From the IMG/VR virus record IMGVR_UViG_3300014205_000170, positions 32,001-96,000 of that record: a DNA stretch of 64,000 nt. One strand, written 5' to 3'. Below, piece after piece: positions 5,497-57,503 of this stretch; position 1 is the stretch's first letter, and each line of letters opens with the position of its first letter. Both the position numbers and the translations under genes were made by a program. Under the pieces are notes generated by a model. The model ran no database searches. It saw nothing but the letters and a program-made list of their open reading frames with translations, and was not told where the DNA came from. Origin of the DNA: a virus. Its lineage: Duplodnaviria > Caudoviricetes.

Positions 5497-5585
5497 GGAG
5501 ATTTAGCTCAGTGGGTAGAGCGGCTTCATCAGGGATACGAAAGTTGACCGGGGGTGCGTCGGTGGTTCGAATCCATCAGTCTCTA
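5497..5585 (+). tRNA. tRNA-like RNA with abnormal anticodon arm (isotype undetermined)
   Basis: acceptor GGAGATT/AGTCTCT, D-arm GCTC-AGTGGGTA-GAGC, T-arm GGTGG-TTCGAAT-CCATC; anticodon loop 23 nt. Confidence 0.7.
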
Positions 5586-5591
5586 CAAAAG

Positions 5592-31388: not shown

Positions 31389-31616
31389 ATGAGTATAGCA
31401 AAAATTAAAAGTATATTGATAGACAAAGGTTATTATTCAGATGACCATGCTATTTCAAGTAGATGTATAAGAGATATTATTTCTGCATATAAAAAAGTAG
31501 AAAGACAATCTATAAATAAAAAAGCGAAGAAGATAGCAATAGCTAATCTAGAAAGAACAAGAAATGTACTACTCGAAAAGAAAAATTTAAAAAAAGTACG
31601 TAAAAGAAAAACTTGA
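31389..31616 (+). CDS. EK-tag protein (possibly frameshifted C-terminus)
   Basis: TRNVLLEK; +1 frame stays open to 31725. Confidence 0.7.
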   Translation: MSIAKIKSILIDKGYYSDDHAISSRCIRDIISAYKKVERQSINKKAKKIAIANLERTRNVLLEKKNLKKVRKRKT

Positions 31617-31726
31617 GACGAAGCGTAAAAAGGAACAAGAAGAGTTGAAAAAAAATATTACTCCAGCACAAAGAGAAGAATTTAAAAGAATTGCCGAACA
31701 AATGAAAGACACAAACAACACATAAC

Positions 31727-32032
31727 ATGCAAGATATTTTAAATACGCATTATGGTTCGAGAGATGTTTTGATTGAAAAGAATTTTATAATTAAAATAAT
31801 TCCTGCTGAATATGTAAGTCCTGATTTGGTATGGTATTTTAAATATATAAATGAGAAATTTAGTGTTAGACATGCTACAAAAAAAGAAAAGGAAGATATA
31901 ATTAATGATAGAAATTATTTTGGTATGTCATTTAGAGAAAGATGTAAACTTAATGGAATTTATGTGTCAACAAATGAATCTTGGATGCTTAATAAATGTT
32001 TTATCGGCAAATGTGATTCTATAAAAATTTAA
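31727..32032 (+). CDS. EK-tag protein, family B
   Basis: SRDVLIEKNF. Confidence 0.85.
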   Translation: MQDILNTHYGSRDVLIEKNFIIKIIPAEYVSPDLVWYFKYINEKFSVRHATKKEKEDIINDRNYFGMSFRERCKLNGIYVSTNESWMLNKCFIGKCDSIKI

Positions 32033-32036
32033 AATT

Positions 32037-32228
32037 ATGAAAGATATTATTGAAGAGTTGTTTTCTTGTCACGAATTAATTATTACCAAAGAAGGTTTTA
32101 ATGCTTCTTTAACTTTGAAGAATAATGAAACCAACAAAAAATGGACATCCACATTGCCTTGTGACCATCACTTGGATAAAGAACGAATACAAGATTGTAT
32201 TAGATTTATGAAAGACAAAACCAAATAA
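32037..32228 (+). CDS. hypothetical protein
   Basis: ORF in operon spacing. Confidence 0.65.
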   Translation: MKDIIEELFSCHELIITKEGFNASLTLKNNETNKKWTSTLPCDHHLDKERIQDCIRFMKDKTK

Positions 32229-55650: not shown

Positions 55651-56088
55651 ATGGCTAAAAAAGAAACAAGTGTTTCACAGAAAACGGTTATGACAGAAAA
55701 AATTTCTGAAAGACCTTTATTGAAATTACATGTTCCCGGAGAAAGTTTTTGGGCATATAAAATTTCTGAAAATACTGCTGAAATTGGAAATATACTTATG
55801 AATCCAGATTATTGTTTGGGTGACATTGTATCATTTAATCCAAACAACAATGAAGTTATAAAATTAATAGAGAAAAAAACCACCACTTTAGCTATGAGCT
55901 ATTCTAAAGATGGTGATGTTAAAGAAAAATATAGTAAAATTTATACTTATTTTGAAGATAAAAACATTAAAGTAGAAGGTATGTTTGCTGGAGTTTTCTT
56001 ATTGGCTATTCCTATTAATATTCCAGAAAAAGCCATTGAACAAATTATAGCAGAGTGTCCTGAAAAAATAGATTTTATTGTTGATTAA
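55651..56088 (+). CDS. EK-tag protein
   Basis: KTVMTEK; GESFWA..IGNI. Confidence 0.8.
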   Translation: MAKKETSVSQKTVMTEKISERPLLKLHVPGESFWAYKISENTAEIGNILMNPDYCLGDIVSFNPNNNEVIKLIEKKTTTLAMSYSKDGDVKEKYSKIYTYFEDKNIKVEGMFAGVFLLAIPINIPEKAIEQIIAECPEKIDFIVD

Positions 56089-56092
56089 AAAA

Positions 56093-56574
56093 TTCGTTCT
56101 TTGAATTGGTACTTAAAGTTAATTCAAAATTTTTATGTGGTTAAACCTACGGGGATTTGCCATGACGAGCCGGTTTAAAACCAATGAACCGTTTAACTTA
56201 TGAGCATCTTATATAGATAAGTGCTGCATAAAGAAATTGAATTAGCCTGAACCTTCATTTGCATTATTTATGAAGTAAAGAGCTGCCTTAAAAACAGGTC
56301 AAGAATAATGTAAGTTTTACTATTAACATCTTTATAGTATTACGGCTGCTGTACGTCTTCAGCAAAGCTTAGTAAGCAATTTTACAGGCATGACAGACAA
56401 AGAAAGATGTGAGTGATATTCAATAAATAATACTTATTGAAGAAACAAGAAGTTTCAGAAGGGATGATTGCTATGCCTTAATTCTTCTTAGGGATATTTC
56501 TGAAAATTATAAAATCCTCTTTAACTAAAAAAGAGTACCAAACCAGTGGAGGCTGGAACGAAGAGTTGGTACTT
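56093..56574 (+). ncRNA. candidate large structured ncRNA (~480 nt)
   Basis: ORF-free 515-bp gap with about ten hairpins and 5'/3' long-range pairing; strand assumed from context and G-U pairs. Confidence 0.7.
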
Positions 56575-56603
56575 ATTTTGAAAAAGAAGAATATACGATA
56601 ATA

Positions 56604-56927
56604 ATGAAAAAAACATATACCACAAAACAAGCATTGACTCTTTTCAAAAAAAATCTCAAAAAAAAGAGGCCAGTTATAAATGCTTATTTGAAAAAATATT
56701 TACAAAAAATCATTAATAAAGAACTAGGGAAGGAATACAGAATTGAGGCTATGAAAATACTGTTAAAAGCAAAAAGAGAAGAAGTGGCTGAATTTCTCAT
56801 ATCTTATCATTCTGATGGAGTAAATGCTGGTATTTGCTGTCTTGCTTTGGATTTTATAAAAGACCGTCTTGTAAAAGACAAAGAGGTCGGAGAAAATTTT
56901 TGTAAAAAATTCGGTAATAAATTTTAA
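56604..56927 (+). CDS. hypothetical protein
   Basis: ORF. Confidence 0.75.
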   Translation: MKKTYTTKQALTLFKKNLKKKRPVINAYLKKYLQKIINKELGKEYRIEAMKILLKAKREEVAEFLISYHSDGVNAGICCLALDFIKDRLVKDKEVGENFCKKFGNKF

Positions 56928-56928
56928 C

Positions 56929-57503
56929 ATGGCAAATCACGCAAGAATTTGTTCAAAGAAAAAGATTGACCCCAAAGAGGTTACAAAAATCATTAAAGGT
57001 CTTAATGAAGATATATTAGCTGGAGTTTTTACTATTGAATATCAACACAAACAAGAAAACGGATGGGGGAACATCAATGGTATGTACGTTATAAACAAAA
57101 CGAGAGGATTGCCTTAATGTTTTGGTTGACAGATGATGTTCGATATGGAACAGGTGATGAATATGGTTCTCAAAAGGAATATAAAGAATATAAAAAACCC
57201 AAGACTCTATCCAAACAAAGTTGCATTGAATTTCGACATGGTCATGCTTTTCAATTCATGTGGTGGGTAGAAGGGGTATTTAGAGAAAATCTGGGTAAAC
57301 ATTATAATGCTCAAATGTGGGATGATGGTACAGGTTGGTTAGAAAAAGCCAAACCTGAGCTTTATAAAACATTAGAAAGTTATGTTACCGGCATTGGTTG
57401 TAAAACTAAAGAACAAATTAAAGCTTGGAAAAAACTTCATTTTGATTGGCAGAAAGATGAAATTCCAAAAGAATTAATTAAAAAATTAAAATTAGATTTT
57501 TAA
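56929..57503 (+). pseudogene. hypothetical gene split by frameshift in G5 run
   Basis: ORFs 56929-57117 and 57063-57503 fuse if one G is added at 57065-57069. Confidence 0.55.

Follow-up and report, generated by a model that had tools for sequence, protein, structure and literature searches.

What is encoded in a stretch of 515 bases that lies between two genes of a giant phage and holds no open reading frame (ORF)? The stretch (Table 1) belongs to a 64,000-nt piece of DNA (hereafter the window), taken from a virus record of 518,809 bp (bases 32001-96000) that has direct terminal repeats and an estimated completeness of 100%. The genome has a G+C content of 30% and contains 51 tRNA or tRNA-like genes as called by ARAGORN (a MetRS and an RNA ligase are also encoded in the window). 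Gaps of at least 300 bp without an ORF of at least 60 aa are few: there are only 22 in the 518,809-bp genome, several of which are tRNA arrays or the tmRNA (G000 475621-475985; 104.7 bits in a whole-genome Rfam search). A sequence-only reading of the window had described the gap as ORF-free and full of stems, and had proposed that it encodes a large structured RNA, either of a known class such as GOLLD or ROOL or of a new one. The gap is indeed non-coding under any genetic code: each of the six frames of 56089-56603 contains 8-16 stops, and because TAA is found in every one of them, no stop-codon reassignment (TAG and TGA included) opens a frame. The longest frame starting with ATG, GTG or TTG has 25 aa, and no reading frame is common to the stretch and the two homologues described below. 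The stretch is single-copy in its own genome. Among sequencing runs it is best represented in the DNA of a landfill metagenome, probably the source sample; two freshwater runs hold one 151-nt piece each (97-99% identical), which we take to come from the same or a near-identical phage and hence to add no independent covariation. None of the sequencing runs listed as holding the stretch is on record as RNA.

Two homologues of the stretch were reached through the neighbouring genes. The 145-aa protein encoded immediately upstream has a homologue (P0002, 54% identical) on L002, a Logan contig of 12 kb; with 27.3 bits, P0002 lies just above the 27-bit cut-off of PF14085 (DUF4265), and Atlas features and structure searches agree with this assignment. 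Just upstream of the P0002 gene is a 700-bp gene-free gap, which matches the window stretch by blastn with 70% identity over 352 nt (E 1e-34). A covariance model of the central domain (R1; 150 positions, 36 pairs) was made from the window and L002 sequences. A two-protein DUF4265 profile gave 16 further homologues, and the contig of the homologue P0080 (L049) has a 650-bp gap upstream of its DUF4265 gene; R1, which predates the discovery of L049, scores 127.6 bits on this gap (E 6e-28). The L002 and L049 sequences are 73% identical to each other, and the proposed RNA is conserved at ∼70% DNA identity in three related phages.

Other collections gave no further member. Among 50,697 GenBank phages there is no blastn match to the stretch and no tblastn match to its 185-aa neighbour; exact patterns of the conserved blocks have 0 matches in IMG/VR viral contigs, 13 in JGI metagenomes (all chance), and chance matches or none in GTDB genomes. 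The flanking proteins and the MetRS, used as queries, have no relatives among IMG/VR viral contigs, and the DUF4265 profile has none among GTDB genome contigs. A profile of the 185-aa protein found one IMG/VR relative (G001; 508 kb, 97% complete), in which the RNA is absent both by DNA search and by model R1. It is also absent from the contigs L003-L005 and L030-L035, which were reached via neighbour proteins (by blastn for L003-L005 and L030-L033), and the P0077 contig has no gene-free gap. Since G001 and several related contigs are without it, the RNA is dispensable in this clade.

The sequence-only reading had named folding no better than shuffled sequence, together with a lack of covariation and of a transcript, as grounds for giving up the proposal. 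The + strand of the stretch folds at -119.8 kcal/mol as compared to -98.4 ± 5.0 for dinucleotide shuffles (z -4.24), with 0/100 shuffles as good, and the - strand has a z of -3.05; folded singly, the homologues are unremarkable, with a z of -0.93 for L002 and of -2.0 for L049. The comparative signal is stronger. For the core of the window and L002 sequences, RNAalifold predicts a fold of -48.1 kcal/mol with 61 pairs, of which 16 are compensatory; 200 column shuffles average -18.6 ± 3.6 kcal/mol (z -8.3) and 5.9 ± 2.3 compensatory pairs, none reaching 16. With three sequences the energy is -46.4 kcal/mol (shuffled, -20.9 ± 3.6; z -7.0), and the 16 compensatory pairs compare with 8.4 ± 3.0 in shuffles (0/200). 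The reverse strand folds less well in both cases (-31.7 versus -48.1 and -32.7 versus -46.4 kcal/mol), and G.U is common among the conserved pairs, either throughout or as the outcome of a change; these two observations indicate that the + strand is the RNA strand.

Eight helices (P4, P5, P6, P7, P8 with both its parts taken as one, P10, PK1 and PK2) make up what we call the named core structure. In a plain MAFFT alignment of the three sequences, 97.8% of its 180 cells are standard pairs and 15 pairs are changed on both sides, whereas sliding the 3' partners by 1-3 columns leaves 37-49% paired with 0-2 both-side-changed pairs, and 0/500 shuffles match the observed values; the helices were chosen with two of the three sequences in view, and the covariation events are few and not phylogenetically independent, as there are only three members, two of which (L002 and L049) are 73% identical. 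L049 served as a hold-out: of the 61 pairs that the two-sequence model predicts, it keeps 51, versus 24-29 when slid. Its new pair states are less telling, 7/17 being standard while the slid controls (6-12 of 18-23) do no worse; the failures are in part due to a mis-registered MAFFT alignment of P10 and the terminator. The comparative model, computed without pseudoknot energy, lies 20 kcal/mol above the unconstrained minimum free energy. In all, thirteen helices are common to the three sequences. The sequence-only reading had called for homologues and a covariation analysis; the comparison made here gave two homologues and the 15 both-side-changed pairs, and with three members the locus has what a new RNA family requires, namely homologues and a common covarying secondary structure.

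Table 1. Position of the gap, the proposed RNA, its predicted helices and the adjoining genes in the window
Feature	Position	Strand	Description
Gap	56089-56603		515 bases, between the 145-aa ORF 55651-56088 (+) and the 107-aa ORF 56604-56927 (+)
DUF4265 gene	55651..56088	+	145 aa; adjoins the RNA in all three loci
185-aa-family gene	56929..57503	+	starts MANHA; in the window split into two overlapping ORFs
Candidate promoter block	56060..56091	+	GA(T/G)TTTA, 8-14 nt, A/T-rich TATAAAAT-like box
Proposed RNA	56092-56579	+	∼488 nt; in the homologues L002:1665-2245 (∼580 nt) and L049:1325-1945 (∼620 nt)
P1 hairpin	56101-07/56121-27 (hairpin 56101..56127)	+	UUGAAUU/AAUUCAA in the window
P2	56140-46/56191-97	+	closes variable sub-domain
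P3 hairpin	56198-202/56227-31 (56198..56231)	+	bears conserved word AUAAGUGCU
P4	56245-49/56385-89	+	closes central multi-helix domain 56245..56389; 3 both-side-changed pairs
P5	56257-68/56304-15	+	encloses P6; 2 both-side-changed pairs
P6	56280-85/56295-300	+	2 both-side-changed pairs
P7	56318-23/56334-39	+	conserved loop UAACAUCUUU; 3 both-side-changed pairs
P8	56344-51/56360-69	+	AA bulge; 1 both-side-changed pair
PK1	56326-33 x 56403-10	+	P7 loop ACAUCUUU x AAAGAUGU, outside P4
Candidate PK2	56375-81 x 56466-72	+	AGCAAUU (in invariant GUAAGCAAUUUUA) x GAUUGCU (in invariant GGAUGAUUGCUAUG, P10 loop)
P10	56453-60/56498-505	+	UUUCAGAA/UUCUGAAA; encloses invariant 14-nt word
P12	56533-41/56566-74	+	GAGUACCAA/UUGGUACUU; encloses P13
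P13 hairpin	56543-46/56553-56	+	CCAG/CUGG in window, GCUG/CAGC in L002, GUCG/CGAC in L049
3' element	56533..56579	+	P12 around P13, then AUUUU; terminator-like

All 12 word pairs that the sequence-only reading had listed as stems are present where it placed them, except that its 15-nt stem at 56198/56217 pairs at 11/15 positions when ungapped. Seven of the pairings are conserved with covariation in the homologues: GCCTG/CAGGC, ACATCTTT/AAAGATGT, TGCTG/CAGCA, TTTCAGAA/TTCTGAAA, GAGTACCAA/TTGGTACTT, GGTTAAAC/GTTTAACT and TTTGAATT/AATTCAAA. Others fared less well. The TTCAATAA/TTATTGAA hairpin lies in a variable region and has no clear counterpart in L002 or L049, and the TTCGTTC/GAACGAA helix, thought to join the ends of the RNA, is specific to the window, with no counterpart in either homologue. 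The CTTCAT/ATGAAG stem is invariant in all copies and hence uninformative in the comparison; it overlaps, and competes with, the covarying P5, so that the CUUCAU/AUGAAG helix would be either an alternative state or not formed.

Outside the core alignment, all three copies retain P1, P2, P3, P12 and P13, though with sequences that differ. The P1 pairing is UUGAAAA/UUUUCAA in L049 (two compensatory pairs, and a ∼75-nt insertion in the loop) and UUGA+AUUUAA/UUAAAU+UCAA in L002. P2 is GGUUAAAC/GUUUAACU in the window and GGUUAA/UUGACC in both L002 and L049, and the sub-domain that it closes has an interior of 43 nt in the window (56147-56190), ∼130 nt in L002 and ∼110 nt in L049; the closing stem of P3 is CUUAUG/CAUAAAG (bulged) in the window, CUUCUA/UAGAAG in L002 and CUUCU/AGAAG in L049. 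This 5' domain (P1-P3) would thus be a variable one that tolerates lineage-specific insertions. In the central domain (P4-P8), 93-100% of the cells are paired, and this junction domain is predicted to dock the P7 loop on the strand 3' of P4. The counterparts of P10 are UUCCGGCA/UGCCGGAA in L002 and UUCCAAGCA/UGCUUGGAA in L049, and its top competes with a 4-bp helix (GAAG 56458/CUUC 56484) that covaries too (GCAU/AUGC in L002 and L049); a conserved mini-frame, MIAM(P/L), is also seen in the P10 loop. P12 is represented by AAAUACCA/UGGUAUUU in L002 and by AAACACCAAA/UUUGGUGUUU in L049. The 3' domain (P10-P13) may present an invariant loop able to pair with the invariant J8/4 strand (candidate PK2).

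The crossing of GCCTG/CAGGC with ACATCTTT/AAAGATGT had been put forward as a possible pseudoknot. The second of these is the loop-to-strand pairing PK1, of which 8/8 pairs are kept in all three sequences: L049 has ACAUUUUU x AAAAAUGU, with a C-G pair replaced by U-A, and L002 has AAAGGUGU, with U-A changed to U.G. By sequence comparison PK1 covaries, one of its two strands being backed by compensatory change. PK2 is a possible pairing: it comprises 7 pairs, and because both its strands are invariant in the three sequences, the comparison speaks neither for nor against it.

Conserved elements adjoin both predicted ends of the RNA. An upstream block aligns in all three loci ∼30 nt before the first RNA block, despite the unrelated upstream genes (in the window the DUF4265 ORF extends with its 3' end into the block), and this conservation suggests that it may be a promoter; a scan with the sigma-70 consensus found nothing convincing at this block, and the Bacteroidota consensus is also a poor fit. 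A sigma-70 or Bacteroidota promoter within the invariant word GTTCTTTGA was considered and dropped, as the fit is poor and the word lies inside the covarying P1. At the other end, a U run follows the P12/P13 hairpin in 3/3 copies, so the RNA would end at its own hairpin and U run. Intrinsic terminators do not typically have an A/U-rich hairpin with so large an interior, and a simple terminator scan did not call this one, its loop being too long.

The neighbourhood of the RNA is only partly conserved. The RNA, the DUF4265 gene and the 185-aa gene (homologues at L002:3489-4046 and L049:2366-2932; the protein has invariant EFRHGH and WW-EG motifs) are the only parts conserved among the three loci, each with ∼70% DNA identity; other flanking DNA cannot be aligned, and the upstream genes are unrelated. 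The gene order is DUF4265, RNA, 107-aa and 185-aa in the window, and RNA, DUF4265, (0-3 genes) and 185-aa in L002 and L049, so that the gene directly 3' of the RNA is the 107-aa ORF in the former and DUF4265 in the latter two. G001 and related contigs have DUF4265 and 185-aa genes too, but not the RNA.

Rfam 15 has no match in the stretch, either by cmscan of the window at gathering scores or by a search of 55900-56800 at E<=10, where only chance-level rows were obtained (13-17 bits, to eukaryotic microRNA and snoRNA models). None of the cis-regulatory families of Rfam matches, the GOLLD and ROOL models have no match in L002-L005 either, and ARAGORN calls nothing in the stretch. This excludes, as far as the models see, GOLLD, ROOL, tmRNA, RNase P, group I/II introns and riboswitches, and it bears out the earlier remark that hallmarks of tmRNA, RNase P and introns are absent. 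Of the two options that the sequence-only reading had left, a known class such as GOLLD or ROOL falls away for want of an Rfam match, and a new one is favoured by the three covarying members; its novelty survives the cmscan check, with no match at gathering score or at E<10. No known RNA family having matched, this is probably a new RNA class. We conclude, with a probability of about 0.6, that the RNA encoded in the gap belongs to a family of large structured megaphage RNAs, 490-620 nt in length, that has not been described before. The lack of any Rfam 15 match places the RNA with neither GOLLD nor ROOL but in this undescribed family.

The RNA would be transcribed from the + strand, which is the direction of all its neighbours, and made as its own unit. 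At least three of its invariant blocks would be taken up by internal long-range pairings (PK1 and the candidate PK2) rather than being free as antisense segments. Its most likely mode of action is therefore one in trans that depends on a compact tertiary fold, the RNA serving as a scaffold, as part of a ribonucleoprotein or as a catalyst, much like other orphan 'ornate' RNAs; a base-pairing regulator is unlikely.

A hairpin and U run immediately before a start codon, as found in 3/3 loci, would also be expected of a very long cis-acting leader or attenuator, in which a signal decides whether transcription stops at P12/P13 or reads through into the gene ∼25-30 nt downstream. Two mutually exclusive helix sites (P10 top versus GAAG/CUUC, both covarying, and P5 versus CUUCAU/AUGAAG) and the mini-frame of the P10 loop would suit such a device, and so would the second copy of TTGGTACTT in the window, which could compete for the 5' strand of the terminator; this candidate antiterminator, on which the sequence-only reading had based an alternative pairing, is however absent from L002 and L049. 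The gene that follows the RNA differs as well, no riboswitch or T-box model matches, and to our knowledge no known leader is as long as 490-620 nt. The swapped order of the DUF4265 gene and the RNA in the window, together with the differing downstream gene, favours a stand-alone RNA over a gene-specific leader, and we regard the latter as unlikely. It is also doubtful that the RNA is the partner of the DUF4265 protein and/or the 185-aa EFRHGH-motif protein in an accessory ribonucleoprotein or RNA-antidote module, even though these three are the sole conserved parts of the neighbourhood, the RNA stays beside DUF4265 despite the swapped order, and the layout of L002 and L049 (RNA, terminator, gene) is that of type III toxin-antitoxin loci. 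Both genes are found without the RNA, the tandem repeats of type III antitoxins are missing from it, no RNA-binding role is known for DUF4265, and with three related genomes a functional link cannot be told apart from a gene order that was simply inherited.

The stretch might instead have no function, being an intergenic remnant of recent common descent in which covariation arises from chance and from the choice of helices. The sequences number only three, the homologues have weak z-scores when folded singly and the clade can do without the RNA; but conservation of the stretch equals that of the coding genes next to it, whereas other flanks cannot be aligned, neither column shuffles nor slid partners reproduce the compensatory excess, and the third sequence, found later, keeps 51/61 of the predicted pairs, which makes this explanation very improbable. 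We give even less credence to an element acting as DNA (a replication origin, a packaging site or an inverted-repeat recombination site). In its favour, the stretch is free of genes, rich in A/T and filled with inverted repeats, and its - strand beats shuffles too. However, the conserved G.U pairs would turn into A.C mismatches if the opposite strand or a duplex cruciform were to fold, the consensus fold of the + strand is the better one by ∼15 kcal/mol, protein-binding repeats are not marked by long-range nested helices or a loop pseudoknot, and there are no direct or tandem repeats (iterons) in the stretch.

An undescribed family of structured RNAs remains the preferred reading. In a more ambitious and more tentative version of it, a new class of large pseudoknotted megaphage RNAs, with a biochemical function of its own, would begin with this RNA, carried within a small accessory module that moves from one giant phage to another; it may then act as a ribozyme, assemble with itself, or form a particle with the adjacent DUF4265 and EFRHGH-motif proteins as its RNA subunit.

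Apart from those of ribosomes, RNase P, introns and tmRNA, large RNAs with complex folds are rarely met, and new classes such as OLE, GOLLD, ROOL and raiA have each raised questions about what RNA can do without protein. Megaphages have hundreds of genes without known function, and a conserved 0.5-kb RNA with a covarying pseudoknot would be a new kind of player in giant-phage biology. It also offers a compact structural target, of a size suited to in-vitro transcription, chemical probing and cryo-EM. Unexpected RNA-only assemblies have been seen by cryo-EM for some large RNA classes (10.1101/2024.12.08.627333), and the paper on landfill megaphages does not mention non-coding RNAs (PMC12607003).

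Compared with known systems, the RNA resembles tmRNA (RF00023) in being a several-hundred-nt RNA with multiple pseudoknots encoded by a huge phage, but it has no tRNA-like ends, no ARAGORN call and no conserved tag frame (a tag-like frame after AUAAGUGCU is not kept in L049); the real tmRNA of the genome lies elsewhere, and the end-pairing helix is not conserved. A group I/II intron was rejected as well, with no Rfam match, with flanking ORFs that are complete and unrelated, and with flanks that differ among the three loci. RNase P RNAs are recognized by the conserved blocks CR-I to CR-V; here no RNase P model matches at E<=10, and a CR-I-like GAGGAAA is present only in L002 and L049 and absent from the window. 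Type III antitoxins (ToxI-like) are tandem direct repeats upstream of a toxin gene, with a terminator between the two; the present RNA has no such repeats, and the gene order is reversed in the window. With riboswitch and T-box leaders it shares a structured RNA, a hairpin with a U run directly upstream of a gene, and possible alternative helices, but it is two to three times longer, the class of the downstream gene differs among the loci, and the candidate antiterminator word is limited to the window.

The closest resemblance is to the large ornate RNAs of phages. A location next to tRNA genes is typical of ROOL and GOLLD, though not defining; the tRNA arrays of the present genome are located at G000 344-347 kb and 420-431 kb, and the stretch itself lies in phage DNA. 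GOLLD (RF01998) is a giant ornate RNA of prophages and phages that is found near tRNAs and is longer than ROOL (PMC5737381). The present RNA is shorter than GOLLD, is not beside tRNAs and does not match the GOLLD model, but both are large ornate phage RNAs without an assigned biochemical function. ROOL (RF03087) is 581 nt long on average, with multistem junctions and pseudoknots, and is often borne by phages or prophages; its function could not be deduced from gene context (PMC5737381), and it has been reported to form homo-oligomeric cages (10.1101/2024.12.08.627333). ROOL is typically near tRNA genes and comes from the rumen and Lactobacillales, whereas the present RNA is ∼50 kb from the nearest tRNA-like gene (window 5497), comes from landfill and freshwater megaphages, and does not match the ROOL covariance model even at E<10; the two are nevertheless comparable in length (490-620 nt for the present RNA), and the present RNA likewise has several junctions and one or two pseudoknots.

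Within the loop of helix P10 of the structured RNA lies a mini-frame that spells MIAMP before its stop codon in the window. On L002 and L049, contigs of related phages that carry copies of the RNA, the mini-frame spells MIAML and MIAMLQCSL, respectively, again followed by a stop. The 14-nt word with which it begins is probably conserved at the RNA level, through the candidate pseudoknot PK2, though the mini-frame could conceivably encode a leader peptide. Directly 3' of the U run of the RNA is a sigma-70-like site, which overlaps the start codon of the downstream 107-aa gene and, because of this position, is unlikely to be the promoter of that gene. A conserved gene that follows, encoding a 185-aa protein, is unbroken in L002, L049 and ∼30 relatives and is found as two ORFs in different frames in the window; the split may stem from a frameshift, from programmed recoding or from an error in the assembly.

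Features in and beyond the window (G000, whole genome; L004, related contig)
Feature	Location	Details
Mini-frame AUG AUU GCU AUG CCU UAA (MIAMP)	window 56464-56481	inside P10 loop; begins with invariant 14-nt word
Sigma-70-like TTGAAA-16-AATAAT	window 56578-56605	10/12 matches
Two overlapping ORFs, different frames	window 56929-57117 (62 aa); 57063-57503 (146 aa)	pieces of 185-aa conserved protein
Gene-free gap	L004:12-666	650 bp
Further gene-free gaps	G000:C1:19128-19786; 31607-32085; 327070-327521; 500000-500426; 514609-515226	430-660 bp range
Standard tmRNA	G000:C1:475621-475985	outside window; Rfam, 104.7 bits
tRNA-like genes, anticodon loop unassignable	window 5497-5586	ARAGORN '(ca)'
	G000:C1:4818-4892	ARAGORN four-base '(agaa)'
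	G000:C1:17799-17873	ARAGORN four-base '(agaa)'

A gene-free gap is also found in L004 (JGI 3300037524), a contig from a related megaphage that encodes a homologue of the 107-aa gene. This gap, not homologous to the RNA of the window, may be another structured RNA of unknown type; Rfam gave no match to it, and Tandem Repeats Finder called no repeat there. It contains about four loosely repeated units (pattern GGCCAC..GT...CUACUUCUA...GCAAAAUUUCC) and is closed by a strong hairpin and a U run. The five further gaps in G000 had no Rfam match at E<=0.01.

ARAGORN places a permuted tmRNA at G000:C1:17780-18274 instead of the tmRNA found by Rfam, which did not confirm this call and matched a tRNA alone there. 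The tRNA-like genes with unassignable anticodon loops score 43-51 bits with the Rfam tRNA model where checked, and may be intron-containing or quadruplet-decoding tRNAs.
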